NCBI GenBank assembly: GCA_965214755.1
Contig: OZ243979.1
Coordinates: forward strand, 2,691,251 to 2,755,250
From: an uncultured Candidatus Binatia bacterium
GTDB taxonomy: Bacteria; Desulfobacterota; Binatia; Bin18
DNA length: 64,000 nt
Reading direction: 5' to 3'
The notes beneath the pieces were generated by a model. The model was not told where the DNA came from. It saw only the letters and a list, made by a program, of their open reading frames with translations, and made no database searches. Position 1 is the first letter of the stretch. Each line of letters starts with the position of its first letter. This document shows, piece by piece, positions 21,476 to 43,292 of this stretch. A program made the translations under genes and the position numbers.

Positions 21476-21627
21476 GACGGATTTCCCCTCACCGGTGGAG
21501 GGCCGGACAACCACAGTGGGTTGCCCCTACCTTTTATCCCCTCTCCCGCTGGGAGGGAGCCAGGGTGAGAGTTCCTCTTGTGGACACGGTTTGACCAGGG
21601 TGCTTCTGGTCGCTACTTTGCTTATGT

Positions 21628-22304: not shown

Positions 22305-22585
22305 CCTTCCTGAACCGCACGACAGCTTACAGCCGGAACATGGTTCGCCTTTATACCACTCTACAGTGGCCCACAGCAGCTTCACGCAAGCGTGAGCGCT
22401 CTCCGACCCACTAGCGAGCCAGAGCGCTCATTTGTCATACCCTCTCCCTTGCCGCGTATGCAGCATCAAGGCATCTTAACGGAGGACATGATACAAATCG
22501 GGAGTCAGAGTCATTCGGACATTGCAGTTTTATCGTGGAAAGCCGCTGTCGCTTTGGTGGCGTCCTGTACCATGTCGGCAACGCC

Positions 22586-23913: not shown

Positions 23914-23963
23914 ACGGCAGGCATGCTTCGGTTTGCGTTGACGACAAATCAGGGTAGGCTGGC

Positions 23964-24491
23964 TTGAAATTAAGCAAGCTACGGCGGGTAAAAGGCATGG
24001 TTAGCGATCAGACTCGAAACACCATTTGGCAAGGACTGTTGGATATGGCAAGGCTTGTCCGTTACTACGAAAGCCTGTCCGACCGGCATCGACGCAAGCA
24101 TTTTTGGATTCGCATCGTGCTACTTGCCGCGGCGGCTAGTGGTATTGCTGCCTTGCTTGATCTGTTTCCAGAGGTCATTCAGATTGTTGCCGGCGGTCTG
24201 GTCGCCCTATGTGTCGTATGGGATTTCGTGTCAGACTACGCAAAAAAAGCGGCCATCCTGCACGCAATCAGCATTGAATGCAGTGCTCTAGAGGTCGAAT
24301 GACAAGACTTGTGGGGCGATCTTGAGAACCTCGACGACACGGAGGCTCGACAACGCAACACCCGCCTGTCACGGAGACTCACCGAGGTCACCGGATGGGC
24401 GGGGCATACCGATATTCAAGAAGACCCAAAGCTGAATGAAAAATGCGAAGCCGCAGCCTACCGGGTGATGCAGGATCAGTATGGCGTCTGA
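23964..24491 (+). pseudogene. predicted 2-TM membrane protein (SLATT-like effector, tentative) interrupted by in-frame TGA at 24300
   Basis: LVRYYESLSDRHRRKHFWIRIVLLAAAASGIAALLDLFPEVIQIVAGGLVALCVVWDF has two predicted TM helices after an amphipathic N-terminus. The downstream ORF 24309..24491 is in the same frame, separated only by TGA. Confidence 0.3.
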
Positions 24492-24911
24492 CATGAGAAG
24501 ACGTACAGCCTCAGGGAAGCCCGCAAGGCCGGGTAAGACGCCACCACCTCCCCAGACCCAAGCCGGAGCAGGGCAAACCGAAACCCAACCAAGGCAAAAA
24601 GTAGCCCCTAGAGTTATTGCCGAAACCGACGGCTAGCACAGTTTTCACAGAGGTGTAGCGGGTAGGCGGCAAGCGTGTGAAGCGGGCAGCACCACTAGGC
24701 CGGAGGGCCTAGGCGAGCGGATTCGCTGGCCCTGCGGGAGCGGGTGGGAGCAGATCGGGAGGCGGGACTCCCGACCGCCGAGGGGCCCACAAGTAGCGGG
24801 TGCGTCCGGCGTGGGTCCGCCGCCTGCTACAGCGCTCCCGAGCGAGCGGCCACGTGGCCCCGCAGCGCCGGCCGCCGTTAAGCTAGTCCTCCCTACCACA
24901 GGAGGTGAGCC

Positions 24912-26046
24912 ATGCCTATTGATCTCGATACGTTCCTTGTCGCACTCTATACCATTGTGGACGATCTGTACCAGCAGCAGGCGGCCCCGGCCAAGCCGGT
25001 GCGCCGCGGTCCTCGGCCGACGGTGTCGGACAGTGAGGTGTTGCCCCTGGCGCTGTGTGCACAGTGGTGGGGGCGTTCGGAGCGGGCGTTCGTGCGCTAT
25101 GCGCGGGCGCAGTGGCGCACGTATTTTCCGCGCTTCCTCAGTCAGAGTGCATATAACCGGCGGTGCCGGGACTTGGCCGGGGTACTGGTGGCGCTGGTGC
25201 CAGCGGTGGCGCGGGAGCTGTGCGCGGCGAGGGCGGCGTATCAAGTGCTGGATACGGTGGCGGTCCCCTTGCTGCGCCGTTGTCGGGGGTGTCGGCGGCG
25301 ACTGTTTGGGGACGAAGCGGCCCTAGGGTGGGGTGGGAGTGATAAGGACTGGTACTATGGCTGTAAGTTGCTCTTGGCGGTACTGCCGAGGGGCGGGGTG
25401 ACGGGCTTCGTGCTCGCGCCAGCCAGTACCGAGGACCGCTGGCTGGCGGACGCCTTGCTGGGCTGGCGCGTCGCCCCCATGCCCGGCCCCGCCAGCGGCA
25501 GGACTTGCTCCGGCCACCGCGGGCCAACGGGACCCCGTATGTGGAGCCCACCGGGCCGCGGTGGCCGCAGTTGGGAGCCGGGGTCCCCAGCACGGGTCCC
25601 TATCTGGCCGATAAGGGCTTCTCGGGGGCGGGGTGGCAAACGCATTGGAAGCAGGACTATGGAGCACCCGTGCTCACGCCCCCGCAGGCGCGGGGTACAA
25701 CGTGGGCAAGACATTGCGGGCATCTTCAGGACTGACACGCCCCCGCAGGCGCGGGGTGCAACGCGCCACCGCTCCTTCTCCACCTCTTCGACCGGCCACG
25801 CCCCCGCAGGCGCGGGGTGCAACGAGTGCTCACGCCAAACGCCAACATAGCCGCTGGCGCCAGATCGTCGAGACCATCAATGGGCACCTCACCCGCACCT
25901 TTGGCTTGCACTTTCCAGGCGCCCGCACCCCCCACGGCTTACTGACGCGCATCGCGGCCAAGCTCGCCGCCGTCAATCTCGGCCTCTGGTTCAACCGTCT
26001 CTTCGGCCGCCCCCCATTGGCCCTCGCCACCCTCTTCCCTGCCTAA
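24912..26046 (+). pseudogene. IS982-family DDE transposase, disrupted (three frames)
   Basis: MPIDLDTFLVALYTIVDDLY...RRGPRPTVSDSEVL...WYYGCKLLLAV... | ...YLADKGFSGAGW...YGAPVLTPP | ...RWRQIVETINGHLTRTFGL...TRIAAKLAAVNLGLWFNRLFG match the IS982 pattern (M..L.ELF..i.c..DDF; DKGY; LiTP.rkN; IEt.F..LK). An extra GC-rich segment with a 14-bp inverted repeat (25512-25525 / 25553-25566) and a 122-bp repeat-spacer insertion break the frame. Confidence 0.75.
25675..25824. CRISPR. ectopic mini CRISPR-like array: 3 x 28-nt repeat (CACGCCCCCGCAGGCGCGGGGTGCAACG) + 2 unique 33-nt spacers, embedded in IS982 transposase ORF
   Basis: Repeats at 25675-25702 (one A/G variant), 25736-25763 and 25797-25824. Spacers are tgggcaagacattgcgggcatcttcaggactga and cgccaccgctccttctccacctcttcgaccggc. 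Period 61 bp. The repeat has the CCCCGC-loop-GCGGGG stem and a 3' ...CAACG tail like type I-E repeats. One repeat copy is native coding sequence (TPPQARGAT). Confidence 0.45.
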
Positions 26047-26092
26047 CAATGTGCATCACACGTACTGGGAGGGAGGCAGGATGAGAATTCCC

Positions 26093-27250
26093 CTACACCG
26101 GAGCCTCATGCATGCGCCAGGACTTCTTTCCCGCCGGGAGATTGAACAGCTTGGCGGCATTCTCCCGCATGATGTCCTGGCGTTGCTCCTCTGTGATATG
26201 GGCCGCGTGGTCGGCCAGTAGTTGCTGGGAGCGCGGCCAGGTGGAATCCGTATGCGGGAAATCACTGGCCCACAGCAATTGTTGGTGCGGCATGATATCG
26301 ACCGCATGAAACGCGGTCGGGTCGTCTTGGAAGGTCATCCATACATTGCTCTTGATATATTCGCTGGGAAGTTTTGACAGGCCGTCAATAATCCCGCCCT
26401 CGGCGTTAATCCTGGCGGCGTGGTCCATGCGATACATATAATGCGGCATCCAGCCGGCGTCGCCCTCGGCACACACCAGTTTCAATTGCGGATGACGCTC
26501 AAAGACGCAACCCAAAACCATGAGACCGACAACATCCTGGACGGCCCGGATGATGCCCAGAAAATTGTTCATCTCATGGCCTCGATGCGGCATGTTCAGG
26601 CTGCCGTCCCGCGAGGTCAGAATATGAAAACAAATGGGCAGTCCCAGGTCGGTTGCGCACTCCCACAGGGCGTCGTAGTCGGCGTGGTCATAGTCTTCGT
26701 AGATGGGCCGACCCGGCATCATCATGCCGACCATGCCCATGTCCTTGGCGCGCCGGAAATCCTCAATCGCGCTGTCTACGTTCAGGACCGCGGTCTGTGC
26801 CAGACCCAGGATGCGGTTCGGCGCTTCGCTGCACGTAGCCTGTAGCCAGCGGTTATAGGCCAACATGCAGGCGTTCTTATAGTCCGGGTCCCGGTGCATG
26901 CACAGACCCATCCCAATGGAGGCGTAGATGGCTTCAGCCGCAATCCCGTCCTGGTCCATATACGGAATTCGCGCCTGACCGCCATAGGCCCCCTCACGAA
27001 TATCAGAGAACCTGACTTTTTTTGCGCGGTTGTTGCGCTCCGTGACCGTGAAGCCGGCACCATCAATGAATCCCAGGGGAATCGGACGCTTCATGCCGTG
27101 TACGACAAAGGCGTCCGTACCATCGGGTTGTTCCACGATACGCGGGGCGACGGCGCGGTATTTTGGCTCAATATAGTCGATGTAACAATTGGCTGGCTCA
27201 CACACATGGCCGTCGGCTGAAATGATCCCTGCCGGTATCTCTTGCATCAT
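26093..27250 (-). CDS. amidohydrolase family protein (amidohydrolase-2; paralog of 1029..2138)
   Basis: MMQEIPAGIISADGHVCEP, ...WASDFPHTDSTWP. RBS GGAGAG before ATGATG. Same architecture as the first amidohydrolase. Confidence 0.7.
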   Translation of the reverse strand: MMQEIPAGIISADGHVCEPANCYIDYIEPKYRAVAPRIVEQPDGTDAFVVHGMKRPIPLGFIDGAGFTVTERNNRAKKVRFSDIREGAYGGQARIPYMDQDGIAAEAIYASIGMGLCMHRDPDYKNACMLAYNRWLQATCSEAPNRILGLAQTAVLNVDSAIEDFRRAKDMGMVGMMMPGRPIYEDYDHADYDALWECATDLGLPICFHILTSRDGSLNMPHRGHEMNNFLGIIRAVQDVVGLMVLGCVFERHPQLKLVCAEGDAGWMPHYMYRMDHAARINAEGGIIDGLSKLPSEYIKSNVWMTFQDDPTAFHAVDIMPHQQLLWASDFPHTDSTWPRSQQLLADHAAHITEEQRQDIMRENAAKLFNLPAGKKSWRMHEAPV

Positions 27251-30593: not shown

Positions 30594-30857
30594 ACGATCT
30601 GAGATTTTTCGGACCGGTAAGTACCTCAGCGGAGACAAACGCCAGAATGGCCCCCTATTTATCTGTCAGCTTACTTAAAGCTGTCTCCTTCCTGGGCTGG
30701 CGCTTTCCGGGGCGACGAGTGTGCTCGTGTTGACGACGAGACCCATGGATTGGTTGGAGATGGATCAACCCGATTGATCTGCTCAAGGCCGTGCGCGAAG
30801 CGGTCATCTCAGGCGCTGAGCGCTTCGTGCATCAGTGATAATCACTCTCCCCTCGGC

Positions 30858-33800
30858 TCACTCGAACGAGGCTAGCAACCCTTCAAGCCGTTTACGGGTT
30901 GCGGATTGGACCCGAGAGATTCCAATAGCTTTCGCTATATCCCGCATAGGCTCCGCTGCTCCTGTCTCCTTCACATTCTGAATGAGTGCTCTTAATTCTT
31001 CTTGACAGATTTCCTCAGCCGACCGATAGGCGTCTTTGTCCTCAGGGGCTCTAAAGATTGTCCATTTGTCCGGCTGCGCTCCCGCAGGCCAGTAAAATTT
31101 TCTCTGGTCTTCTGTGCTAGTCTGAAACTTCTTCTTCTGTGCAATAGTGCGGACTCGGTCCTGTATTAATCTTCCCGCACGCTGAAAGCCGTGCGCACGC
31201 GCTACGCGTTTGATGAGGAGATCCTCGTGTATCGGTCCTTCGACCTCAATAATACGTGTGATGAGCGCAGAGAGTATTTGGGTATAGCTCTTTTCCTTGA
31301 ACGCTTCTGGACTGATCTGATCTTCAAACTCACTGAGATCGGTCGCTCGATAAACGGTTTTCAAAAACTGTCTATCTCCTGGAGCTGATCCAGCTCGTGA
31401 GGCCGTCAGTTCATACTGTTCACTCGGCTGCTTTTTTAACATTGTGTCGGCCTGCTCTTCGGCTTGAGCACGCGCGGTATTCAGTAGTTCCTCCAAGGCA
31501 TGCTGGAGCTTCTCCGTCGCACCAACTGGGTCAATCCACCAATCGGTTGACCATATCCTGAGGATGTTCCAGCCGAGTCTACGGAGTACCTGTTCCCTTA
31601 CCTTGTCACGATCTCTTGCCGTTGCAGATCGATGATAGGTTGCGCCATCGCACTCTATCCCGGCAAGGTATGCTCCTGGATTGTCAGGGTGTACCACGCC
31701 GAGATCGATCCGAAAGGCCGATACACCGATCTGACTCTCAACCCTCCAGCCCTTAGCCCGTAGACGATTGGCAACCGCTTTCTCAAAGGGGGAGTCATAC
31801 CCACCAACTGAACCATGGACGGCTTCTGCTAATGCATGCGGCCCACGCTCCGCATATTCCATGAAGTGCTTTAGGTCCCGTACTCCAACAGCTTGGGTGC
31901 GTGACAAATCAATCTGCTCAGGTCGGAAGCTGGAAAAAACGACGAGCTCGCTTCGGGCACGAGTAATAGCAACGTTCAGACGACGCTCCCCACCCTCTTT
32001 ATTCATTGGCCCAAAGTTCATCGTCATATGCCCCGTGCGATCAGGCCCATAGGTGAGCGAGAAAAACATGATATCGCGCTCGTCCCCTTGGACGCTTTCG
32101 AGGTTCTTTACAAAGACAGGCTCTGTAAGATCATCCGAGAAGAACGGCTCAATCTGCGGGGACTTGCGCCGTTCATTGTCCAGTAAATCCTCTATCAAGC
32201 GCTGTTGCTCCGAGTTAAATGTCACAATGCCAATAGATTTCTGTGGGTTGAGGGGAAGCTGATTCTTCAACCGTTCAACCACCTCAGCTACCACCGCTTG
32301 TGCCTCTATTGCATTGGACCGTGCCCTAGCCCGTTCATATACGGCATCTTCAACAAAACGAAATTTCACCGCGGTATCCTCGGTTCTCGCCGAGGGAAAT
32401 GTGATCAAACCGCCACTATAGTAATGGTGATTAGAGAATGCGATGAGACTTTCGTGCTCACTACGATAGTGCCAGTTGATCTTATGCTCCGGTAGACTGG
32501 CTCCGAGACACTCATCCAGGATGCTTTCCAGGTCGCCTTCCAGATCAACCTCTTCGTCTGCCTCTTCATCGGAGCGATTAAAGAAGCTTGTTGGGGGAAG
32601 CTGTTTGGGATCCCCAACAATCACCGCGTGCTTAGCCCGTGCGATAGCACCAATGGCATCCCAGATCGTGATTTGAGAGGCTTCATCAAAGATCACTATA
32701 TCGAACTGCGCCTGACCTGCGGGGAGGTATTGCGCTATCGAGAGTGGACTCATGAGCAGGCATGGGGTTAGCTGAGGAAGAGCGGTCGGCATCTCTGTGA
32801 CAAGTTGCCTGAGTGGCTTATGACGCTGTCTTTTCTCCAACTCGCGTTTCAGTATGCCGAACTCTGATCCACGCGCGACGTCATTTTTGGATGGTAAATC
32901 GCCACTCAAACGAGCTCTGATATATTGCCGAGTGATTACGGAGAATTTGTCATCGAGTGCGCGGAATTCCTTAACCGTTGCTTCATGCTCGGCAGAAACA
33001 AAGGTTCTGAGCACCTCGTCGTTATCCACAACTGCATTGATCCACCAGCGTGCATAGTTGGTCTCAAAAGCTTGCTCCACACCGCCCAGGTCAATTCCCC
33101 CATTCTCCAGTGCAAGGATGAGATTTTCGAGGCCCAACTCGCTTGCTTCATTTCGCACTCTCCGCCAAGCACACCATGTGTTCAATTTGGCCTTATTATG
33201 GATGATTACGGACAATGATACGTTTGTATTTGAGAGCCAATCCTCCAGTTCTCCTTGGCCAAGCCGGTCAAACGCCTCATTACCGGCGAGAGAGGCGAAT
33301 TTTCTGAGTTGATTTTGAAAGTTACTCCACTCTTTTGAAAGCCTCTGGCTAGTGCGCCCAATCTGGCTGGTATCTTCTAATAGATCATTGCCGTCCTCAA
33401 GCAATCTTTTGAGCTTGGCGCGGATCTCAACCAAACTGTCTGTATCCTGTCCTAGTGCTGCAATGGCACGACGAATTTTGCATGCAATTTCCAGTTCTTC
33501 TTGGACCTGGGACACTTCCGTGTTGAAGCCTTCCCACACAGCGACTGCAGATAACCTTTCCTCTAAGCTCGCCAGCGTCTGTCCAAAAGTTCTTAAAGAA
33601 TCAAAAAGAGCTAAATCTTCTGCAACGTCTGGTGTATGTCGTGCGCCACCAGCAGATCGCAGATCTTTTCTTATGAAAAGTTTTTGAAAGAATGACAGTG
33701 GCCACCAGGTGCGAATGGCGGCTTTCCAACGCGTTGCGAGATCGTCAATAGGGATATTTTGCCACGCCTGTTCGGCATAACTCCCCGAGAGTTGCTGCTC

Positions 33801-36683
33801 AGTCTTCCGGTATTCCTGAAGAGCCGTACATGCCTGCTCAAGCGCAGAAATAGTCTGTCCAGCACCGGACTCAGCCGCGTAGCCCATGTGTCTTCTGAAA
33901 CATAGTGGGAGGACTTCAGCCAACTCAGCGAGAGCCATTAATTGATCGTAGTTGTGGCCCGTGGATGAAAGTCCCAAGTCCAATGCAAGAGTGGCGACAG
34001 GCTCTACAAGTGCTTTCGCTGTCCGCGAGAGGGTTGCACAATGGACGAGCAGTTGTTCCTGCCAACCGGGTGACCAATCGCTTGTATGGACACTACTAAG
34101 CGGACTACCGGAAATCTCGCCAAGTTCTGCCACATTGATATCAATCCGGTGGACTACCTCCCTCAGTTGGTCTAAGTCTTCGGAACTGTGCGTATCTGGA
34201 TGTGACCACTGGAGAGAAACAAATGGCATACTCTCGTCGTGGACAATGCGGCCCATAGCGAGATAGGGTGTCAGGCCGTTCGCATATTGATGATGAAGCC
34301 GCTGGACAAATCTATTCAGCTTGTCACGATGTTTCTTCAAACGCCCTGCTTCTGTTTTCCACTCGTGAATGGTGTGGGCGCCTGACCGATCCCATGCCTG
34401 TCTTAATTGCTCCAACACGGCAGTCTTCCGTGCTTTGTTTGAATGCAGTTCCAGGCAGAATTCGCCAAGACCAACCTCCCTGAGGCGTCTATACACCACA
34501 TCAAGTGCAGCAATTTTTTCAGAGACAAAAAGGACTTTGCGTCCCTCTGCAAGATTATGCGCAATCATATTCGCAATAGTCTGAGACTTGCCTGTCCCTG
34601 GCGGGCCAAGAAGAACGAAATCCTTTCCCTTTGCGCAAGCAAGCACCGCTGAGAGCTGTGAAGAGTCCGCAGGCAACGGGGTTAAAATATCTGCCGGACT
34701 GTACCTCTCGTCTAAGGTCTCTGGATTAGGAAATTCTATTTCACCGGCGTACGGATCGCGAGGCGTTTCTATTAAATGCCGAACAATATCATTTTCCTTA
34801 AGATGAGCGGTACGATCGACTAAATCTTTCCACATCAAATATTTTGCGAACGAAAACAGGCCCAGGACAATCTCCTCAACGACCTCGAAGCCTTGAACCT
34901 CTTTCACTTCCTGTCGAACTTTGTTCCAAACGAGAGTTACGTCTATACCATGGCTATCTTCGGGAAGTGCTCCATCGAAGCCTTTGATGTCTAAATTAAA
35001 ATCCTGCCTCAACATTTCTAACAGCGTAGTATTGAATCTGGGCTCGTCATCGTGGAGAGAGAGGCGGACGCCTGATCGGACACTTTTTCGCTCCAAGGTC
35101 ACGGGAATGAGAATCAGTGGTGCCCGGAATTTACGATCCGAACTATCGTCTTTTTTCCAAACAAGAAAACCGAGAGCGAGGAACAGAGTGTTCGACCCGC
35201 CTTCTTGTAAATCACTACGTGCGGTTCGGAATAGTTCCACCAGCCGACTCTCCAACTCCTTTTTATCAAGTTCGACGAGCAATTCGTCCCGTAATAAAGC
35301 TGCTTTTGCGTACTCTTCTGTCAGATGCTCGCCGGTTCGCTGATGATGTAAGGTGCTGGAGCGGCCGTCTTCAACCTCCATATTAGGCGCTGACACGATT
35401 TTCATCTTCTTACCGTCAGCTAAGCGGTCTTCCAGCGTGCTAAGGTCTGGACAAAAAATCTTTACTGACTTTTTCGTCGCGCGGAAATTCAACAAGCGAT
35501 TACGTAAAGAAAGATCAAGCAGCTTTCTCTGCCATCGATCCAACCGGGTCTGTGGCGAAGTTTCCTCAGGTTGTATTTCTCCAATTGGGGTATCAAAATC
35601 CGGCAGACCCTCTGGTGCAGCTTCGAGTGGGTCGTCTCGATGCGCTACCGCTGACTCAGTACTGCCCTCTGCTTGTGGTGCCTGACTGGCAAGCGGCCTC
35701 ACCCTTTGCATCCGAGCACGACGAATATCCGTCGCCAAGATAAAGTCCTGCTCACGCTCTTCTGCAATCTGCCGCTTGGCTTCGTCAATCGCTGCAGAAA
35801 AAGGTGCGGGAGGGTGGTTTGTTGCTAATGTTGTCTCAAAAACTAACAATTCCTTTAGATCGATCCGTTTTCGAAGAGTACTGGCCTCATCCACAACGAG
35901 CTTGGAAAATTGCTCTGGCTGGAGCCACGCACCGGCAAAAGCGTGTCCTGCGATGAAGACAAGGATAGGGTTGAAGCCTGCTTGTTCTAGAGTGGCTGCC
36001 AAGAATAGCGCCAAGTCAAGACAAGTGGCTCTACCAGAATCAATAATTTGAGACGGTAAACGAATTTTCTGCCCAGTTGTCTCAAAGCTCGCTGGTGGAA
36101 GTGCGTAATCGAGCCGAAGGCTCGTGAGCGCTGACCAGATGGCTGAGATGATTTCCCAAACCCGCTGTCGAGAACCAGAGGTGTAGCCGTCAATGTGAGG
36201 TGGCCTTCCAGCCTGTCGCAGAATTTCACTCGTACTTTTGAGAAGCTTATCCACAGCCGGATCGTTGCTGGCGCAAAAGGCTGCCAGCAACTCTGGCATA
36301 AAATGAACGCCTCCCCACTCGTTATGCGCCAGCAGTTCAACAGGCTGCGTGGCCGAAGCGAGCCCGGTTGAATCGTTATCCTTAGTATGGAGGGTAAAGC
36401 GAGCGTTTCCAGAAACTGCTTCATTGAGGCCTAACAGATATTCCCCGCTCAGCATAATATCCAAGTCATCTAGGTGCAGGATATCATCGGTTCGCAAGCA
36501 GTCGATTGTCCAGTTTCTTGGTGTGAAAAAAATTGGGTCGGATGAGAACTCCAGAGTCAGATTCTCATAGTCAGACTCTGAGACGTTATGAAGAGACAAC
36601 TCTCTAATAAGCGGTACCGAGTTTTGATGCGACGCAAAAGTGATCTTCTTGGCAACGGTTGCGCAAATTTGAATACCGCTCAT
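30858..36683 (-). CDS. giant DUF4011 - SF1 (Upf1-like) helicase - DUF559/Vsr-like PD-(D/E)xK endonuclease - DUF3320 protein; Hhe-like single-gene antiphage candidate
   Basis: 1941 aa, uninterrupted. DUF4011-like RKLLDLSLRNRLLNF. Walker A LLGPPGTGKSQTIANMI. Helicase motifs VIVGDPKQLPPT, SVQGDERDIMFFS and NVAITRARSELVVFSS. C-terminal nuclease ...IDLGVVHP...GIECDGATYH...LRRLGWNILRIWSTDWWIDP. Terminal DUF3320-like region. Gene GC is clearly lower than the flanks. Confidence 0.7.
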   Translation of the reverse strand: MSGIQICATVAKKITFASHQNSVPLIRELSLHNVSESDYENLTLEFSSDPIFFTPRNWTIDCLRTDDILHLDDLDIMLSGEYLLGLNEAVSGNARFTLHTKDNDSTGLASATQPVELLAHNEWGGVHFMPELLAAFCASNDPAVDKLLKSTSEILRQAGRPPHIDGYTSGSRQRVWEIISAIWSALTSLRLDYALPPASFETTGQKIRLPSQIIDSGRATCLDLALFLAATLEQAGFNPILVFIAGHAFAGAWLQPEQFSKLVVDEASTLRKRIDLKELLVFETTLATNHPPAPFSAAIDEAKRQIAEEREQDFILATDIRRARMQRVRPLASQAPQAEGSTESAVAHRDDPLEAAPEGLPDFDTPIGEIQPEETSPQTRLDRWQRKLLDLSLRNRLLNFRATKKSVKIFCPDLSTLEDRLADGKKMKIVSAPNMEVEDGRSSTLHHQRTGEHLTEEYAKAALLRDELLVELDKKELESRLVELFRTARSDLQEGGSNTLFLALGFLVWKKDDSSDRKFRAPLILIPVTLERKSVRSGVRLSLHDDEPRFNTTLLEMLRQDFNLDIKGFDGALPEDSHGIDVTLVWNKVRQEVKEVQGFEVVEEIVLGLFSFAKYLMWKDLVDRTAHLKENDIVRHLIETPRDPYAGEIEFPNPETLDERYSPADILTPLPADSSQLSAVLACAKGKDFVLLGPPGTGKSQTIANMIAHNLAEGRKVLFVSEKIAALDVVYRRLREVGLGEFCLELHSNKARKTAVLEQLRQAWDRSGAHTIHEWKTEAGRLKKHRDKLNRFVQRLHHQYANGLTPYLAMGRIVHDESMPFVSLQWSHPDTHSSEDLDQLREVVHRIDINVAELGEISGSPLSSVHTSDWSPGWQEQLLVHCATLSRTAKALVEPVATLALDLGLSSTGHNYDQLMALAELAEVLPLCFRRHMGYAAESGAGQTISALEQACTALQEYRKTEQQLSGSYAEQAWQNIPIDDLATRWKAAIRTWWPLSFFQKLFIRKDLRSAGGARHTPDVAEDLALFDSLRTFGQTLASLEERLSAVAVWEGFNTEVSQVQEELEIACKIRRAIAALGQDTDSLVEIRAKLKRLLEDGNDLLEDTSQIGRTSQRLSKEWSNFQNQLRKFASLAGNEAFDRLGQGELEDWLSNTNVSLSVIIHNKAKLNTWCAWRRVRNEASELGLENLILALENGGIDLGGVEQAFETNYARWWINAVVDNDEVLRTFVSAEHEATVKEFRALDDKFSVITRQYIRARLSGDLPSKNDVARGSEFGILKRELEKRQRHKPLRQLVTEMPTALPQLTPCLLMSPLSIAQYLPAGQAQFDIVIFDEASQITIWDAIGAIARAKHAVIVGDPKQLPPTSFFNRSDEEADEEVDLEGDLESILDECLGASLPEHKINWHYRSEHESLIAFSNHHYYSGGLITFPSARTEDTAVKFRFVEDAVYERARARSNAIEAQAVVAEVVERLKNQLPLNPQKSIGIVTFNSEQQRLIEDLLDNERRKSPQIEPFFSDDLTEPVFVKNLESVQGDERDIMFFSLTYGPDRTGHMTMNFGPMNKEGGERRLNVAITRARSELVVFSSFRPEQIDLSRTQAVGVRDLKHFMEYAERGPHALAEAVHGSVGGYDSPFEKAVANRLRAKGWRVESQIGVSAFRIDLGVVHPDNPGAYLAGIECDGATYHRSATARDRDKVREQVLRRLGWNILRIWSTDWWIDPVGATEKLQHALEELLNTARAQAEEQADTMLKKQPSEQYELTASRAGSAPGDRQFLKTVYRATDLSEFEDQISPEAFKEKSYTQILSALITRIIEVEGPIHEDLLIKRVARAHGFQRAGRLIQDRVRTIAQKKKFQTSTEDQRKFYWPAGAQPDKWTIFRAPEDKDAYRSAEEICQEELRALIQNVKETGAAEPMRDIAKAIGISRVQSATRKRLEGLLASFE

Positions 36684-36901
36684 ACAGACCTCTGGGTTCT
36701 TTTGGATAAACTCCCTACCTCAATCGGGCTAAACAGCACTTAACACCTGGGAGTATCCTACAATAGTACTACCAGATTTCCTTAGAGAGTCTTGTTGAGA
36801 GGAGACACCGTTGGTCCAACATTGGGGGAACTGTCTTTGTGCGCTCTCGCCCTATTGAGATCTAACTTGACCAAGTCACTGGACCTAGTTAAAGTTTCTC
36901 C

Positions 36902-37135
36902 ATGAAAACAATGCTCGTGTCTGAATTCAAGGCAAAGTGCATCGCTGTACTCAAGGAAGTCAATCGTTCCCGCGAGCCCATGATTGTGCCTCTGCGTGGG
37001 CAACCCCTGGTGACTATCCAGCCATTCGCAGCACTCCCTTCGGGCAAACAACTCGGTGAGCTGAAGGGCAAGATGACTATTCACGGTGACCTCGTCCACA
37101 CTGACTCGACCGATGATTGGGACATGCTGGCGTGA
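36902..37135 (+). CDS. type II antitoxin, Phd/YefM family
   Basis: MKTMLVSEFKAKCIAVLKEVNRSREPMIVPLRGQPLVTIQP. GTGA overlap with the downstream PIN gene. Confidence 0.55.
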   Translation: MKTMLVSEFKAKCIAVLKEVNRSREPMIVPLRGQPLVTIQPFAALPSGKQLGELKGKMTIHGDLVHTDSTDDWDMLA

Positions 37136-37531
37136 CGCTGTTGCTCGACACCCATGTCTGGATCTGGTCGCAGGAGCAGCCTGAGAAGTTAGGACGACAA
37201 ACAGCGCGAGCACTGCTGGACCCAGAGTACACCGACACTATCTGTACAATATCCACGCTGGAAGTTGCACGTCTGTTAGCCGTTGGTACAATCTCACTGG
37301 CCATCCCACTCAGCGCCTGGATTGCCCATTCCCTGAGCAGTCTGGACGCAACAACATTACCCGTGACCCATGCGATTGCCGCCGAAGCGTACGCCCTTCC
37401 CGCCACCTTCCATAAGGACCCGGCAGATCGTATCCTCGTGGCAGCAGCCGTCTGCATGAACTGACCCTGTTGACGGCTGATGAACGGATTCTGCACTACC
37501 CCCATGTTCGGACACTGGATGCCCACAGTTA
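37132..37531 (+). CDS. vapC: type II toxin VapC (PIN domain) with apparent -1 frameshift near the C-terminus (~37452)
   Basis: MTLLLDTHVWIWSQE... is a PIN N-terminus. The annotated frame stops at 37464 (..AAAVCMN*), but the canonical C-terminus LHELTLLTADERILHYPHVRTLDA continues in the 0 frame to TAG 37531. Confidence 0.6.
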
Positions 37532-37617
37532 GAGGAGCGCTGTTCATCCCCCGGTACGGGTCGTCTGACAAGAGAACACGCCTTGAGCGTCACACCACGC
37601 TGGGCTAACGTGTCGGC

Positions 37618-39237
37618 ATGAACGCCCAACAGGAATACCAGCCGCAAGAGACGCTCGCCTTCGACAATCGCTTTACGCGGGAGCTGCCCGCCGACCCTCA
37701 AACCGGAAACGCTCGCCGTCAGGTCACGCGGGCATGTTATTCCCGTGTCCAGCCGACAAAAGTCGCTCAACCCCAGTTGGTTGCCTACGCCTGGGAAGTG
37801 GCCGAGGAATTGGGCCTTTCCCGCGCATTCTGCGAGTCGGACGATTTTCTCCGCATCTTCTCGGGGAACCGGGTGCTGGAGAGCATGGACCCCTACGCAA
37901 TGTGTTACGGCGGTCATCAGTTCGGCAACTGGGCCGGGCAGCTCGGGGACGGCCGGGCCATTAACCTGGGCGAGATTATCGGCCCGACCGGAAGGCGCTG
38001 GATGGTCCAACTCAAGGGGGCTGGCCTGACGCCCTATTCGCGCAGTGCGGACGGACTAGCCGTCCTACGCTCGTCCATCCGCGAGTTCTTGTGCAGCGAA
38101 GCCATGTATCATCTCGGTGTCCCGACCACCCGCGCGCTCAGCCTGGTCTCGACCGGTGAACACGTCATCCGCGACATGTTTTATGATGGCAATCCCAAAC
38201 CCGAGCCGGGAGCCGTGGTATGTCGGGTCGCGCCGTCTTTTGTGCGCTTTGGCAATTTTCAGATATTTGCCGCCCGCGGAGAAATCGACGTCTTACAGCA
38301 GTTAGTAGACTACACCATCCGTACCGACTTTCCTCACCTAGGCGAGCCGTCCCGTGCGACCTATCTGACCTGGTTTGAGGAGGTCTGCCGGACAACCGCC
38401 CAGATGATTGTGCACTGGCTGCGGGTCGGCTTTGTCCACGGGGTGATGAACACGGATAATATGTCGATCCTGGGGTTGACGATTGACTACGGCCCGTACG
38501 GCTGGCTGGAAGACTATGACTCCAACTGGACGCCCAATACCACCGATGCCGCGAGTCATCGCTACGCCTTTGGCAAGCAGCCCCAGATTGCCCATTGGAA
38601 CCTGGTCCAGCTTGCCAACGCGCTCTACCCCCTGATTGAACAGACGGAACCCCTAGAAAAAGCGCTGAGCAGTTATGTCCAGGAATTTGAGTCGTGTTGG
38701 CAGACCATGATGGCCCACAAACTGGGACTCCAGTCCTTCAAGCCCGACCTGGACGATACCCTGGTCGCTGGCCTGCTGGAAATTCTGCAACTGGCCGAGA
38801 CCGATATGACCATCTTCTATCGGCGGCTGGCGAGCATTGATCTCGACGCCAAGCCTGTAGACCAGATCGACGACGCCACTTTCATACAACCGCTATTGGA
38901 CGCCTACTACGTCCCGGAGCAGTTGACCCCGGAGACAACGGCCCGCATCGCCGCATGGCTGCGTCGCTATCACGACCGGGTGAGAGAAGACGGGACGGAT
39001 GACGAGACGCGCCGGAAACGGATGAACGCGGTCAACCCGAAATATGTGCTGCGCAACTATCTCGCCCAGCTCGCTATCGACAAGGCCGAGCAGGGCGACC
39101 CCTCCATGGTGCACGCCTTGCTGGAACTCCTCCGCCATCCCTATGATGAACAACCCGACAAAGAAACCTACGCCCAAAAGCGGCCCGACTGGGCCCGCCA
39201 GCGTCCCGGCTGTTCCATGTTGTCGTGCAGTTCGTGA
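37618..39237 (+). CDS. selO: protein adenylyltransferase SelO (YdiU/UPF0061 family)
   Basis: 539 aa. GDGRAINLGE, QLKGAGLTPYSR, FVHGVMNTDNMSILGLTIDYGPYGWLE and the C-terminus ...CSMLSCSS* are family-typical (the kinase-fold AMPylator). Confidence 0.85.
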   Translation: MNAQQEYQPQETLAFDNRFTRELPADPQTGNARRQVTRACYSRVQPTKVAQPQLVAYAWEVAEELGLSRAFCESDDFLRIFSGNRVLESMDPYAMCYGGHQFGNWAGQLGDGRAINLGEIIGPTGRRWMVQLKGAGLTPYSRSADGLAVLRSSIREFLCSEAMYHLGVPTTRALSLVSTGEHVIRDMFYDGNPKPEPGAVVCRVAPSFVRFGNFQIFAARGEIDVLQQLVDYTIRTDFPHLGEPSRATYLTWFEEVCRTTAQMIVHWLRVGFVHGVMNTDNMSILGLTIDYGPYGWLEDYDSNWTPNTTDAASHRYAFGKQPQIAHWNLVQLANALYPLIEQTEPLEKALSSYVQEFESCWQTMMAHKLGLQSFKPDLDDTLVAGLLEILQLAETDMTIFYRRLASIDLDAKPVDQIDDATFIQPLLDAYYVPEQLTPETTARIAAWLRRYHDRVREDGTDDETRRKRMNAVNPKYVLRNYLAQLAIDKAEQGDPSMVHALLELLRHPYDEQPDKETYAQKRPDWARQRPGCSMLSCSS

Positions 39238-39241
39238 GCTT
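39206..39241. repeat. copy 1 of ~36-bp direct repeat = native 3' end of selO (att-like)
   Basis: cggctgttccatgttgtcgtgcagttcgtgagcttc. Re-occurs at 40459..40494 with 2 mismatches, and a degenerate third match sits at about 42337..42354. Confidence 0.8.
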
Positions 39242-39426
39242 CAGATAAATCCGAACAGCGGTGATGAAAAAAGAGAAAACCATGCCTGTCGTCGAAAAAC
39301 TGAAGGAGCACCGGAAGAAAGAGTATCGGAAGGCGTGCCACTGGTACAACTTGTGCTGTATTTAGGAAGCTCTCGCACGGTAGATATCGGAAAGAGAATC
39401 AACACTCTGGCTCCGACAGGGAGCGG

Positions 39427-40069
39427 TTGCCCAAAGACGGAAGAAATCTTATCCATACCAACCCGCGCGCCTTCCTTGTCGGAGCAGTTTTCAACAGGGG
39501 GGTGGATTGGGAGAAGGCGTGGGAAATCCCCTGCCGCATTAACCAGAAGGGGAAGTTGGACGCATCCAAGCTCGCTAAAATGAAAAAGTCCGAGCTAGTA
39601 CGCCTCCTGAAGCGCCTCCGTGTCAGGCCTCGATACGTCGATCAGGGAGCAGAGACACTAGAGGACGTCGCCACGCTTGTGGAGAGAGACTTTGCTGGTG
39701 ACGCAGCCGCAATCTGGCGGGACGCTTCACCAGCATCCGTTGAAAAGAGGCTCCAACGCATCAGGTACGTCGGCCCCGGTATCGCATCTATGGTCATCCG
39801 TATACTGCACGACGACTGTGGGATGTTCAGGGGACAGGAGATAGATATCAAACCCGCTGTGCGTGCGTGTTAGGCGCGTGTTTGAACGCACAGGGCTAAC
39901 TCATTCCAACTCAGAGAATGAGGCTAGAAATGCCGCGCGGAGGCTGAACCCCGATTTTCCCGGAGAACTGGACTGGCCAGCGTTTGACATTGGCGGGGAG
40001 TGGTGTTCTGCATCTAATCCCAGGTGTCCAAGCTGTCCACTGACAACGGTATGCCCCAAGCGTCTCTAA
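39427..40069 (+). pseudogene. HhH-GPD superfamily (endonuclease III-like, [4Fe-4S]) DNA glycosylase, frameshifted
   Basis: Two overlapping frames: ...RYVGPGIASMVIRILHDDCGMFRGQEIDIKPAVRAC* and (V)RVRRVFERTGL...LDWPAFDIGGEWCSASNPRCPSCPLTTVCPK. The Cys-x7-Cys-x2-Cys-x5-Cys cluster matches the EndoIII FCL motif. The shift falls inside gctgtgcgtgcgtgt, a (GTGC)n slippage-prone tract near 39862. Confidence 0.55.
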
Positions 40070-40187
40070 CCCCCGACATTGAATGCTACCGCACACCTAC
40101 GCGTCGGAATGCGGTAGAATTCTTAACCATCCAGCGAAGAACTGTACGACCAAGTCTACGACCTGCTGTGCGACGGCGAGGTGGACA

Positions 40188-40433
40188 ATGACAATCCCGA
40201 CAAAATTGTTAGACGTAGTGGCCCCAATGGTTGACTTGCCTGACTATAAGCTCTGGCGTGGGCAGGTTGGGACGGTCGTAGAAATTCTGGCAGATGGTGA
40301 AGCGTTTGAAGTCGAATTTTGTGACCGAGAGGGCCGGACATACGAGTCGGTGGGCCTTCGCCCGGATCAGATCATGGTGTTGCACTATGGGCCTTGGGCG
40401 TCTCAACCGCTATCCACGCCGGAGACCGCCTAG
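40188..40433 (+). CDS. DUF4926-like small protein
   Basis: Start at internal ATG (MTIPTKLLDVV...). LPDYKLWRGQVGTVVEILADGEAFEVEFCDREGRTYESVGLRPDQIMVL resembles the DUF4926 pattern (GtVV...ayeVEF.d.eG). Confidence 0.35.
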   Translation: MTIPTKLLDVVAPMVDLPDYKLWRGQVGTVVEILADGEAFEVEFCDREGRTYESVGLRPDQIMVLHYGPWASQPLSTPETA

Positions 40434-40458
40434 AAGGTTGAGGATACCCCCAGACGGC

Positions 40459-40494
40459 CTCGGCTGTTCCATGCTGTCGCGCAGTTCGTGAGCT
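40459..40494. repeat. copy 2 of selO 3'-end direct repeat (att-like)
   Basis: cggctgttccatgctgtcgcgcagttcgtgagctgc. The spurious ORF 40294..40491 ends in GCSMLSRSS*, copying the SelO tail. Confidence 0.8.
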
Positions 40495-40577
40495 GCACTC
40501 GCGGACAAAAGAATAGGCCGCCGTCTCAAGACTCACCTGTTGGCGGCAGCATCGCTCTTGGTGTAGGATTCAGACTA

Positions 40578-41300
40578 ATGGAAGTCCGACTACAAAGACC
40601 CCAGCGAGAAGACCTTTCGATACGCTTTACGTTGGCCCCATTCATCACCGAATGGGTCTCGACGCAAGCGAATTTCATCACCGCAATCGCCCAGAAATTC
40701 GGTGACTGGCTCTCGGTTCGTCCACAGGATTTTTCCTCAAATCCTTCAGGTAATCTTGGAGAAGCGTGGTGCATGTACAGGATATTCGGAGGCACAAGCA
40801 CCATCGTCCTCCGTCCTGATACCCTAGAGTTGAATTTTGTGAACCTAAACGAAAACGACCGTCAATCTGTCATCGCAATAATCCGACGGTCAGGCTCTGT
40901 GTTACAGCAAGATATTGGCGGCTATACACGGTGTTACGTTTCGTTGACCTCCAACCGGCATGCCGAAATAGCTGGTGACGGGAATGCCGATCGTTACCTC
41001 AATCAGTTCGCATTGAAACACGCTGCCGATATGGTCAAAACTGATTCTGATATGGAATATAAACCCACAGCAAGAGTCGTACTCTCGCATAAAGGTGGAG
41101 ACTGGTCGGTCCATCGATTGGTCGAAAAGTCCGATTTCCTGCCTGATGGTCTATTCGTCCACACGCTCGTATTCATTCCGTCATTCGACCTTGCGGAACT
41201 TGATGAACAAGGGGAATTAATAGATCGAATCTTTGAGCAGGCCGATAAAGCGGTCGAACTGAGCTACGTCGGAGACAGCGATGCAGACGCCAACTCTTAG
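40578..41300 (+). CDS. hypothetical protein (ORFan, low-GC islet)
   Basis: Internal ATG chosen (MEVRLQRPQ...); the open frame extends upstream to 40488. No recognisable motifs. Overlaps the next gene by 20 bp. Confidence 0.3.
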   Translation: MEVRLQRPQREDLSIRFTLAPFITEWVSTQANFITAIAQKFGDWLSVRPQDFSSNPSGNLGEAWCMYRIFGGTSTIVLRPDTLELNFVNLNENDRQSVIAIIRRSGSVLQQDIGGYTRCYVSLTSNRHAEIAGDGNADRYLNQFALKHAADMVKTDSDMEYKPTARVVLSHKGGDWSVHRLVEKSDFLPDGLFVHTLVFIPSFDLAELDEQGELIDRIFEQADKAVELSYVGDSDADANS

Positions 41301-41889
41301 CCCTTCTGCCCCTGATGGGGGCTTCGCTCATGATTGGGAAGTACGGAAAAACAGCGAGCAATCGGAGATAATCAATCACGCGCAGTCGCTCGAACATTCT
41401 CCCTCGAATTTTCGGCGTCCGGGACTATTCGCTAATACTCTCCCGGGCTTATACGAACAGGTCATCACGAGAGAGCTGGATAACCAACAGGAAGCCCTTC
41501 GCCGCATACGGGTAGACAGCTTAGACGCACGGTGGCTTGCGGACGCGATAGAGGAGTTGGAAGAGATAGATGATGAGGTGGCCGAGGAAGCACTGCCGGA
41601 GCTTGCTGCTGACACCAAGAAACACGCCCGCAGGATCGTTTTCGCACTTACAAAGCAGCCTATCGCCCCGACCATCTACCCCACTACGGACGGCGAGGTC
41701 GCTCTGTATTTCAAGTCACCGGTTACGGCATCTTCTGTTTTGATTCTGGTAGGAAATGATGGACAGGCTACGTGTTTTTCGTATATCAACGGGAAAAATC
41801 GGCGTGCCCGGTACGACGACGCGGCGGACCTCCCGGACGAATTTGTAAAGGCACAGATACAGGCGCTCAAGGAACCAGCGTTTCCGTAA
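41281..41889 (+). CDS. hypothetical protein (ORFan), acidic central region
   Basis: 202 aa. The central LADAIEELEEIDDEVAEEALPELAAD is highly acidic and helical. No family recognised. Translationally coupled to the upstream ORF. Confidence 0.3.
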   Translation: MQTPTLSPSAPDGGFAHDWEVRKNSEQSEIINHAQSLEHSPSNFRRPGLFANTLPGLYEQVITRELDNQQEALRRIRVDSLDARWLADAIEELEEIDDEVAEEALPELAADTKKHARRIVFALTKQPIAPTIYPTTDGEVALYFKSPVTASSVLILVGNDGQATCFSYINGKNRRARYDDAADLPDEFVKAQIQALKEPAFP

Positions 41890-41902
41890 AATACGCAAAC
41901 AT

Positions 41903-42308
41903 GCAACTTCCGGACTTGAAGGATTCCGAGGATATTGGGAGAAGCGTTTTCTCAAGTCGAGACGCGAGGCGAGCGAGAAACGGAAGAGTCGTCCCTGGTG
42001 TCTTTCTCGAACGTCTGGAAGCGGTCTCGATCTCCGTAGATCGGATGAATCACGCGCCGTTGCCCGTTCTCGCCAACCTCTCGAAAGAGAGAGGACGTAG
42101 CCGGGGAAAAGACTTCTATGGTTGGGCAACCTTGACAGTCAGAGACGCGGCATCCAACGGAAGAACCGTGGAGGCGACTCCTACCGATGTCAACATATAC
42201 CACGCCGATATCATTCTTCAGCTGCCCGATGATAATGAACGGCGCGATCAACAGAAGCAGCACGCCAACGAGTTGGCCGCACTCACGCAGTGGAGGGATG
42301 CACCCTAG
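41903..42308 (+). CDS. hypothetical protein (ORFan)
   Basis: ATG 41903 (MQLPDLKDSED...); the track's longer ORF begins at 41772. No motifs recognised. Confidence 0.3.
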
Positions 42309-42395
42309 CCATCTTGGTTTGTCGTGTGAGACTTTACAAGAGCCGCACAGTTCGTGACCTCGACGGGATCAGGAGAAATTCAGAAGGAGAAAGCA

Positions 42396-43292
42396 ATGGC
42401 ACACCTAACAACCCTCCCGGCAACGACGGACACCGCGGATATCCTTCCGATCATTGGAAAGGACGGGGCGGTTATCCTGAAGGATATGCTCACCCCCGCC
42501 GGGGTCGATCAGGTGCTGGATGAAACCGGGCCGTATATTGAAGCCACGCGCAACGGCCAGGACCCGTTCGTCGGCCTTTGGACCACACGCACCGGTGCGC
42601 TGGTGGCCCGCTCGTCGGCGTGCCGAGACCTGGTGACCAATCAGGCGGTGCTGAAAGCCGCCCAGACCTTTCTGGCACCCTACTGCTCCCGCATTCAACT
42701 CCATCTCGGCCAGATTATTCGCATCCGGCCCGGCCAGCCCAAGCAGGCGATCCACCGTGACCGCTGGGCCTGGGGAACGTATCTGAAAGGCGTCGAGCCC
42801 CAGTTCAACACCATGTGGGCGCTGACCGATTTTACCCGTGAAAACGGAGCAACGCGGGTTATTCCGGGCAGTATGGACTGGCCGGACGGGCGCCGGGCGG
42901 ACAAGGACGAAATTGTCCAGGCCGAGATGACGCGCGGCTCGGTGCTGCTGTATACCGGCTCGGTCTTGCACGCCGCGGGCGCAAACGACTCGGACGACGA
43001 CCGGATCGGCCTGAACATCACCTACTCGCTGGCCTGGCTGCGCCAGGAGGAAAACCAGTACCTGTCCTGTCCGCCCGAGGTTGCCAAAACCTTATCAACC
43101 GAATTGCAGGACCTGCTCGGCTATACGCTGGGGAGTTACGCCCTGGGCTATTACACGCCTCCGCTGCCACCGGGAGAAGGCCCCGAGTCCATCGGTCCGC
43201 AATACGCCCTGGGACGCGAGCAGGACGGAGAAGGCCTGGGCAGCGCGGAGTTGCGCCGGGAAATCCGAAACGCGACAGGGAGTAAGGTCTGA
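42396..43292 (+). CDS. phytanoyl-CoA dioxygenase (PhyH) family protein (Fe(II)/2OG oxygenase)
   Basis: ATG 42396 after GAAGGAGAAAGCA. QAIHRDRWAW (HxD), ...LLYTGSVLHAAGANDSDDDRIGLNITYS (distal His, Arg) is the PhyH signature. Confidence 0.7.
   Translation: MAHLTTLPATTDTADILPIIGKDGAVILKDMLTPAGVDQVLDETGPYIEATRNGQDPFVGLWTTRTGALVARSSACRDLVTNQAVLKAAQTFLAPYCSRIQLHLGQIIRIRPGQPKQAIHRDRWAWGTYLKGVEPQFNTMWALTDFTRENGATRVIPGSMDWPDGRRADKDEIVQAEMTRGSVLLYTGSVLHAAGANDSDDDRIGLNITYSLAWLRQEENQYLSCPPEVAKTLSTELQDLLGYTLGSYALGYYTPPLPPGEGPESIGPQYALGREQDGEGLGSAELRREIRNATGSKV

Follow-up and report, generated by a model that had tools for sequence, protein, structure and literature searches.

A strain-variable islet behind selO in a Candidatus Binatia bacterium carries displaced copies of the selO 3' end and may record two successive insertions

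The integrative and conjugative elements (ICEs) ICESt1 and ICESt3 are located at the 3' end of fda. Integrase-less DNA between direct repeats of a gene 3' end, with hybrid middle sites and an intact target gene, is typical of cis-mobilizable elements (CIMEs) and of tandem accretion. Both are documented for families of ICEs and of integrative and mobilizable elements (IMEs) (PMC5704250, PMC6323972). A different route, homology-facilitated illegitimate recombination or "sequential displacement," was proposed by Kirchberger et al. in 2017 (PMC5361080) for the effector-immunity arrays of the type VI secretion system (T6SS), as found in Vibrio cholerae, and for rhs loci. These arrays contain a conserved anchor gene with new modules beside it and older ones kept downstream as orphans, show no recombinase, and later move from strain to strain by homologous recombination (PMC5361080). 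In the core defense hotspots cDHS1 and cDHS2 of Pseudomonas aeruginosa, a fixed pair of core genes surrounds variable cargo of the defense or toxin-antitoxin type, also without an integrase; transfer by flanking homology has been suggested, and the construction of such hotspots, which many bacterial genomes contain between core genes and without mobile-element genes, is an open question (PMC10250203). The locus described here shares features with each of these systems. It lies within a window of 64,000 nucleotides from an uncultured Candidatus Binatia bacterium (assembly GCA_965214755.1, contig OZ243979.1, positions 2,691,251 to 2,755,250 of the forward strand) and consists of two modules, E1 and E2, between selO, the gene for a protein adenylyltransferase, and a gene for a PhyH-family dioxygenase. 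Comparison with related loci supports its description as a strain-variable accessory islet formed by two successive insertions directly behind selO.

The borders of the modules are marked by copies of the selO terminus. The selO gene itself (37618 to 39237, forward strand; Pfam SelO, E=2.3e-128) is intact and encodes 539 amino acids (aa) ending in GCSMLSCSS*, a C terminus conserved across 80 distant and 100 close homologues. The proximal copy of the repeat (39207 to 39243, forward strand; CGGCTGTTCCATGTTGTCGTGCAGTTCGTGAGCTTCA) comprises this working terminus, its stop codon, and 6 nt beyond. A repeat search of the window finds it again, in the same orientation, at 40461 to 40497, the junction of E1 and E2, with 34 of 37 nt (92%) identical and a spacing of 1,254 nt. 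The core string of the terminus is GGCTGTTCCATGYTGTCGTGCAG; a 33-mer core occurs with at most 3 mismatches at two sites only in the 64 kb, compared to an expectation of 0 from 100 shuffles. The proximal copy is intact. The middle copy departs from it at 2 of 33 nt, with a Cys codon changed to Arg and the stop codon retained, and terminates an open reading frame (ORF) of 65 codons (40294 to 40491) with GCSMLSRSS*. The third copy, at the distal end of E2, is cut to 18 nt (42342 to 42359, forward strand; GCCGCACAGTTCGTGACC) and was recognized by repeat search and local alignment, with 15 of 17 nt matching over 42344 to 42360 and a p value of ∼0.004. At the same position, relative L102 carries an equivalent remnant (GTCGCGCAGTTCATAACC; p ∼0.005) and relative L097 a fainter match (GTCGTGCAACTTACAACC; p ∼0.06). 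A possible extra selO fragment at 42309 to 42330 is borderline (p of 0.04 to 0.12).

Beyond the third copy, the native selO-PhyH spacer with the PhyH ribosome-binding site (42361 to 42395, forward strand) leads into the PhyH gene (42396 to 43292, forward strand; Pfam PhyH, E=1.3e-25), the right-hand core flank, which is syntenic in all ingroup relatives. The whole stretch from selO to PhyH measures 3.16 kb. An earlier note, made from the sequence alone, had described the recurrence of the selO end about 1.25 kb downstream, the spurious ORF ending in GCSMLSRSS*, and a degenerate third match at about 42337. The first two descriptions hold, and the third match exists but is short and starts ∼5 nt farther to the right. 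The low G+C content pointed out in that note amounts to a modest drop, with 53.4% in the islet compared to 59.8% in selO, 63.3% in PhyH, and 57.2% in the whole window. Its gene content stands as well: Pfam confirms DUF4926, selO, and PhyH, the three remaining ORFs have no significant Pfam match, and the glycosylase is an HhH-GPD-type pseudogene whose family support stays below threshold.

The comparison set consists of ∼25 related loci with the same flanking genes, all from metagenome assemblies, for which 6 to 10 kb on either side of the site was retrieved. They were found through contigs carrying selO or islet proteins, and one is GCA_026710665.1, labeled "Desulfurellaceae bacterium" at NCBI. 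Dozens of selO homologues with 92 to 95% identity are present on contigs of up to 9 Mb; the window's own selO and PhyH proteins have no exact match in the public gene index, and a GTDB scan with selO returns distant taxa only (identity of at most 71%) among the matches listed. In three close relatives (L083, L085, and L086; selO DNA ∼91 to 94% identical), the selO stop codon lies 34 nt from the PhyH start, and this spacer is collinear with the native spacer of the window. The empty-site check proposed in the earlier note is therefore positive, and the islet is inserted DNA.

Among relatives whose flanks are ∼90 to 94% identical to those of the window, the gap between selO and PhyH shows at least seven states. 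Besides the empty state (A), the gap contains genes for DUF6883, DUF4926, and a 134-aa protein in state B (L087 to L096 and L108); EcsC, a 198-aa protein, a broken DUF6883, DUF4926, and the 134-aa protein in state C (L082); or a 262-aa protein and DUF4926 in state D (L081 and L084). The window represents state E, with a broken gene for the 262-aa protein, DUF4926, and then genes for proteins of 240, 202, and 135 aa. State F (L097 to L100) has DUF4926 followed by the 240- and 202-aa genes and a decayed 135-aa gene, and state G (L102 and L103) has an intact 262-aa gene, DUF4926, and the 240-, 202-, and 135-aa genes. E1 thus occurs alone, in state D; E2 alone was not seen among the ∼25 loci.

In all occupied states, the selO stop codon TGA is followed by a conserved leader of ∼30 nt (GCYTCAG.T.AATCCRAAC...). 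The bases 3' of the stop codon (GCTTCAGATAAATCC...) are common to all occupied relatives and missing from the empty sites: a selO end beside an islet reads TGA+GCTTCA, and the empty-site ends read TGA+TAATA(G) or TAG+CGATGG. The displaced distal copies, in contrast, retain the native downstream sequence. The right end of E1 is invariably formed by DUF4926, an arm of 27 to 30 nt, and a displaced selO terminus. E1 of the window is homologous end to end with the sole insert of L081 and L084, where two repeat copies lie 1,255 and 1,258 nt apart, respectively. Since the native spacer and PhyH come straight after the displaced terminus in state D, E1 is a complete unit between two repeat copies. In the window and in L097, the displaced terminus is followed by E2, which ends in the 18-nt remnant and the native spacer. 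The middle copy, found at the same junction in L097, is deleted in L102 and L103, where it belongs to 58 nt that are missing in comparison with L097 and the window; this gap reads as a secondary deletion.

The displaced copies themselves look like genuine former selO ends. Their reading frame is maintained, and of the four core differences between the distal copies and the proximal copy, three are synonymous (CCG, TCG, and AGT), as expected of former working gene ends; the fourth affects the stop codon (TGA to TGG). Each displaced copy then continues into the downstream sequence of some known empty-site haplotype. No significant selO homology is found 5' of the distal copies, giving the middle copy a sharp left border. 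The tandem build-up suggested in the earlier note gains support from two observations, namely, that E1 occurs alone between two copies in L081 and L084 and that E2 has its own, more decayed, distal copy. This would make E2 the older module and E1 the newer one.

After insertion, the site has turned over from lineage to lineage. By flank sequence, L081, L082, and L084 form one clade at 98% identity, L087, L088, and L094 group with L102 at 96 to 97.5%, and L085 and L086 stand near L097 and L100. The fillings vary inside clades with 96 to 99% identical flanks, one of which combines states D and C and another states B and G. Within clades, DUF4926 diverges more than the flanks (88.6% compared to 96 to 97.5% identity and 95.1% compared to 98.4%). 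These two features, the differing fillings and the more divergent DUF4926, indicate that modules are exchanged between lineages, a pattern that fits exchange by recombination without proving the route. Recent spread is not indicated, since no module clearly exceeds its flanks in similarity; with modules as divergent as their flanks or more, nothing in the alignments points to recent mobility.

How the modules entered is best explained, tentatively, by an integrase-free sequential displacement anchored in selO. In a first step, E2 would have entered with its own selO end, pushing the resident terminus downstream, where it would now persist as the 18-nt remnant at 42342 to 42359. In a second step, E1 would have entered between selO and E2 and supplied the selO end that works today, turning the previous terminus into the middle copy at 40461 to 40497. 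DNA from a related strain would be anchored by pairing with the homologous selO, and an illegitimate joint would connect its far end to a point a few dozen bases ahead of the stop codon of the resident gene. Such a joint would leave the spacer and the PhyH start intact, and only joints sparing the start of the downstream gene would survive. Afterward, the modules would pass to descendants, be exchanged between lineages through homologous recombination of the flanks or the short repeats, lose small pieces by deletion, and occasionally disappear. We infer both the order of the two events and this anchored, illegitimate mechanism. In the general arrangement, a conserved anchor gene is followed by the newest module, older material is displaced, and the joints fall at arbitrary positions, including positions inside the flanking genes.

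Illegitimate joints are present at the site. The 134-aa gene of states B and C (L082, 13719 to 14123; L087, 6325 to 6729) is a chimera of PhyH nt 1 to 26 (MAQFTTLPA) and the last two-thirds of the 202-aa gene, fused in frame behind a copy of the PhyH ribosome-binding site, from which it would be expressed. In states B and C, the chimera comes after the middle repeat copy and the native spacer, and another joint connects the first ∼30 nt of the 135-aa gene with the spacer. The result of these joints is a mirror-image duplication, that of the PhyH 5' end, flanking foreign DNA. Duplicated stretches at the site thus come in three forms: 37 nt or 18 nt of selO and the spacer with PhyH nt 1 to 26. 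Unequal duplications, such as the 37 nt of E1 and the 18 nt of E2, are predicted by random illegitimate joints and not by a single att core.

A further case comes from an unrelated organism (JGI Ga0247727; L173, 1300 to 5600, and L184, 1300 to 2600), in which kdsA has a stack of DUF4926 modules on its upstream side, some with DUF6883 and some without. In front of each module stands a copy of the kdsA start, 78 or 28 nt long, which in places forms an in-frame fusion of the KdsA N terminus with DUF4926. Judged from their layout, these arrays are the mirror image of the selO case within the same gene family, and stacks at kdsA in an unrelated organism are better explained by a site-independent process than by a selO-specific integrase.

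Several observations weigh against sequential displacement. Elements with a tyrosine integrase classically leave direct repeats like the one seen here, 33 to 37 nt long and with the stop codon of a conserved gene inside. The E1 variants have constant ends (∼30 nt on the left, DUF4926 and the right arm on the right) around variable cargo, like families of mobile elements, and both E1 and E2 start with G-Y-T-K-C-A right behind the stop codon, which could reflect related attP sites. Microhomology at the joints is weak for E1 (GTCC) and uncertain for two deletion joints in L087. One right-arm/repeat junction is linked to three downstream contexts, which requires recombination inside the 33-nt repeat, an easy task for an integrase. 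A distant recombinase gene acting in trans is possible, and anchored illegitimate recombination is rare in experiments (PMC5361080).

These points lead to the main alternative, a serious one though somewhat less likely: E1 and E2 as decayed or nonautonomous, CIME-like integrative elements, with an attP containing the last 33 to 40 nt of selO and a tyrosine integrase located elsewhere or lost. Accretion would then have produced attL, a hybrid middle site, and attR. Several features of an integrative element are there: direct repeats that contain the stop codon flank the insert, the proximal copy completes an intact selO (likewise in L081, L084, L087, and L097), relatives L083, L085, and L086 have unoccupied sites, and the tandem layout includes a middle copy. 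The conserved ends around variable cargo and the shared GYTKCA start of both leaders count in its favor as well. Polymorphisms of the distal copies also change partner between repeat positions 10 and 25 (L087 compared to L097), as a crossover in the core would give. Against it, the core borders are uneven, with 33 to 37 nt and a sharp left edge for E1 compared to an 18-nt distal remnant, covering 18 of 33 nt, and the borderline fragment for E2, a difference that decay could explain. The age of the modules, which are at least as divergent as their flanks, gives no sign of recent transfer, and the duplicated PhyH 5' end and the kdsA arrays with the same DUF4926 family are left unexplained.

The searches for the machinery of such an element were negative throughout. 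Neither a recombinase nor a transposase is encoded in the islet or among ∼50 ORFs of at least 150 aa scanned with Pfam across the 64-kb window, a search that covers the window and leaves the rest of the genome outside. The noncoding stretches of the islet are shorter than 150 nt, so that there is no room for an integrase remnant. The retrieved flanks of the ∼25 related loci, in all seven configurations, contain no recombinase, transposase, excisionase, or larger parent element, which extends the observation of the earlier note that no integrase is present. IMG/VR gives 0 matches to the core with exact and codon-degenerate patterns, and an attP form, with the element ends joined around the core, was not found among the 186 fetched loci, in which the core never lies outside selO ends and the position after DUF4926 in this lineage. 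A second selO terminus occurs in 0 of 80 GTDB genomes of other taxa among the matches listed. tRNA genes are absent from the window and Rfam families from the islet region, and the repeat is not accounted for by any notable pattern of promoters or terminators. In the literature, no paper linking ydiU/selO to an integrase attB was found.

Two other types of repeat were considered and rejected. A dif/Xer site or inverted-repeat core is represented, by eye, by just a 5-bp inverted repeat (TGCAG N8 CTGCA) in the middle copy, which is not conserved in L097. A dispersed repeat of the repetitive extragenic palindrome (REP) type, which the earlier note had raised as an alternative source of the copies, or of the miniature inverted-repeat transposable element type does not agree with two full copies in 64 kb and with the restriction of the core described above.

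The structural reading of the earlier note, with inserted DNA, displaced ends, two steps, and no integrase, is thus largely right. Its further claim, that duplication of the gene end is the hallmark of site-specific integration, is not established: no recombinase, attP, or parent element appears in the ∼25 loci or in IMG/VR, and the duplication lengths differ. The step from a duplicated gene end to site-specific integration has no positive evidence, and several details agree better with an integrase-free route.

A single old island, in which the 262-aa, DUF4926, 240-aa, 202-aa, and 135-aa genes entered once, is unlikely. The middle copy would then have arisen later by local duplication or gene conversion, and the single-module and empty states would be deletions between short repeats. 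L102 and L103 do hold the full five-gene block without a middle copy, the site has often undergone deletions (seen in states B, C, and F and at the L102 junction), and module age is comparable to lineage divergence. The missing middle copy of L102, however, lies within the 58-nt gap already described. In L081 and L084, the end of E1 coincides exactly with the middle copy, and the spacer behind it is of the empty-site type, not of the type found after E2. A deletion of E2 between the middle copy and the remnant would leave a CCTCG... spacer, which is absent from the E1-only genomes and the empty sites.

Slightly less probable still is that E1 and E2 are live nonautonomous, site-specific elements that land on the near-universally conserved selO terminus and are moved by a recombinase unrecognizable with current profiles. 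One candidate for such a recombinase would be the set of three E2 proteins, whose 240-aa member has a predicted DNA-binding fold resembling the TATA-binding protein (TBP). In a related and likewise improbable reading, a short displaced gene end serves as a portable homology arm, which would turn such islets into transferable cassettes that need no integrase.

An integron-like array of cassettes without an integrase, a cluster of attC sites lacking integron-integrases (CALIN) in which the repeats are attC-like sites, is very improbable. Small same-strand modules without promoters and with toxin-antitoxin-like and orphan genes would suit it, as would the DUF6883-DUF4926 pairs of other taxa, behind which lie a conserved stretch with ...CAGCTAAC at its end and a faintly attC-like imperfect hairpin. 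The repeat at selO, however, is the coding end of a gene and no imperfect inverted repeat. By eye, there is no RYYYAAC...GTTRRRY pair framing it and no significant hairpin around the proximal or middle copy, no IntI is encoded nearby, and the right arm of E1 does not consistently match the conserved 3' region of DUF4926 modules found at other places (20 comparisons gave one 9-nt match). An artifact or chance origin (a REP-like repeat, a chance match, or metagenome misassembly chaining strain variants) is scarcely credible even for a probably uncultured source with metagenome assemblies as relatives, for 0 chance matches are expected, the core is confined to its two kinds of site, the copies are short (33 to 37 nt) and nonidentical where bubble chaining would give exact repeats of at least the assembly k-mer, and the architecture recurs in independent samples, including megabase-scale contigs, some of them named as circular.

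Sequential displacement at selO would differ in part from the described systems. In contrast to the T6SS and rhs arrays, the selO repeat is the extreme 3' end, including the stop codon, of a housekeeping-type enzyme gene, where those arrays have a junction that precedes a variable toxin domain; selO is invariant, and the cargo is no secreted effector system. The orphans of those arrays have a counterpart in the DUF4926 genes without a DUF6883 partner in L097 to L100. Compared to CIMEs and tandem ICE or IME accretions, no related integrase-bearing element of this specificity is found in the ∼25 loci or in IMG/VR, the selO modules are far smaller (0.37 to 1.9 kb), and the repeat lengths are unequal between the two modules. 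The locus is also much smaller than cDHS1 and cDHS2 and, unlike the "scar-free" hotspots discussed in the same paper (PMC10250203), keeps scars that record the order of events.

The selO locus thereby offers a small, readable example of hotspot construction, in which displaced ends of both flanking genes record insertion order and joint positions. It can be compared with a dozen related configurations, empty sites among them. Should the insertions have been integrase-free, the locus documents sequential displacement in nature at a site that is not a toxin-delivery locus. If an integrase turns up, the selO 3' end is a new attachment site with tandem nonautonomous elements. In both cases, known biology gains detail and is otherwise left as it stands; the hotspot is real but fairly ordinary.

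Module E1 (39244 to 40460, forward strand), nearest to selO, consists of the ∼30-nt conserved leader, a pseudogene, a palindrome, the DUF4926 gene, and a 27-nt right arm. The leaders of E1 and E2 mostly show no significant similarity to the native spacer; those of L081 and L084 reach z values of 3 to 4.6, mainly over the ribosome-binding stretch. The pseudogene (39282 to 40069, forward strand) derives from a gene for a putative 262-aa glycosylase of the HhH-GPD type, similar to endonuclease III with its [4Fe-4S] cluster. Aligned with the intact genes of L102, L081, and L084, it shows an insertion of 1 nt at 39361, a deletion of 6 nt near 39833, and an insertion of 4 nt at 39857 to 39860. Because its first gene is a pseudogene, E1 is evidently decaying in the window. 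The family matches of the 262-aa protein all lie under the curated cutoffs, with TIGR03252 at E=1.6e-12 (47 bits; cutoff, 136.5) and further subthreshold matches to Pfam HhH-GPD (E=0.008), EndIII_4Fe-2S (E=0.021), and endonuclease III in the PDB (E=0.0045). The intact protein shows a C-terminal Cys-X6-Cys-X2-Cys-X5-Cys cluster-loop motif in its sequence. Between the pseudogene and DUF4926, the repeat search finds a 42-nt imperfect palindrome with 21-nt arms and no spacer (40081 to 40122), which is conserved in L081. It forms a hairpin, but folding of the 121 nt around it gives no significant result (z=-1.3); the palindrome may represent an operator, a terminator, or the scar of a recombination event.

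The DUF4926 gene (40188 to 40433, forward strand; 81 aa; Pfam DUF4926, E=1e-25) is the constant right-hand gene of E1, and its product is 70 to 89% identical to widespread homologues. DUF6883 lies directly 5' of DUF4926 in 60 of 80 metagenomic loci and in L087 to L096. Because DUF4926 so often directly follows DUF6883, the two are suggested to form a toxin-antitoxin-like pair, and the gene order indicates that DUF4926 is probably the antitoxin-like partner. The pair is present in states B and C of the selO site; the window, in contrast, has the broken HhH-GPD-type gene in place of DUF6883. In many metagenomic loci (L112 to L114, L116, L121, L123, L126, L131, L141, L145, and L168), DUF6883-DUF4926 pairs share a 3' stretch of ∼55 nt ending in ...CACCAGCTAAC within the first ∼130 nt after the DUF4926 stop codon, and in many of these metagenomic pairs, a GC-rich imperfect hairpin follows. 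This conserved stretch may be an attC-like cassette recombination site or a regulatory element.

Module E2 (40498 to 42341, forward strand) is an operon of three unannotated genes that encode proteins of 240 aa (40578 to 41300), 202 aa (41281 to 41889), and 135 aa (41901 to 42308). The three genes occupy the same site in L097 to L104. The 240-aa protein belongs to an uncharacterized family of ∼160 clusters at 50% identity, without Pfam or PDB relatives. Its predicted structure (predicted local distance difference test [pLDDT] score of 82; predicted TM-score of 0.80) resembles a TBP-like pseudodimer at a modest TM-score of 0.34 to 0.43. The C-terminal part of the 202-aa protein, which has no PDB match, matches the PADLOC candidate PDC-M32A (E=1.5e-6), and the same domain is retained in states B and C. 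For the 135-aa protein, a single-sequence model is unusable (pLDDT score of 41).

Further observations concern selO and its surroundings. In a metagenome-assembled genome of a Desulfopila sp. (L018, ∼11560 to 11587), selO ends in GCSMLS*SS*, with TGA replacing the penultimate Cys codon, and the gene probably encodes a selenocysteine form of SelO. The selO alignment stops just short of the C-terminal motif in L010, L019, L025, L027, and others. An outgroup locus whose SelO is 82% identical (L106) has neither PhyH nor islet genes directly behind selO; a fragmented alpha/beta-hydrolase gene (9707 to 10636) lies directly 3' of selO there, and in the ingroup, this hydrolase gene comes next after PhyH. 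An older insertion may therefore have placed PhyH itself between selO and the hydrolase.

A second variable gap lies upstream of selO (30594 to 37570), with a gene for the antiphage protein ProA (30858 to 36683, reverse strand; 1,941 aa; NCBIfam equivalog NF058533 with 2,330 bits; cutoff, 1,500), Phd (36902 to 37135), and PIN (37117 to 37464). The same gap is empty in L083, at ∼50 bp, and contains other PIN or Phd genes in L085 and L087; no direct repeat was seen flanking it. selO is framed on both sides by predicted defense or toxin-antitoxin cargo, like the core defense hotspots of Pseudomonas (PMC10250203). Farther upstream, a stretch of ∼4.6 kb between luciferase-like and amidohydrolase genes (21500 to 26100), which measures ∼1.2 kb in L081, contains a fragment of an MmeI-type restriction-modification gene (22780 to 23322) and is probably a third variable or defense spot. 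In L085, a long MmeI-type gene (968 aa, running past the end of the locus) lies a few kilobases upstream of selO.

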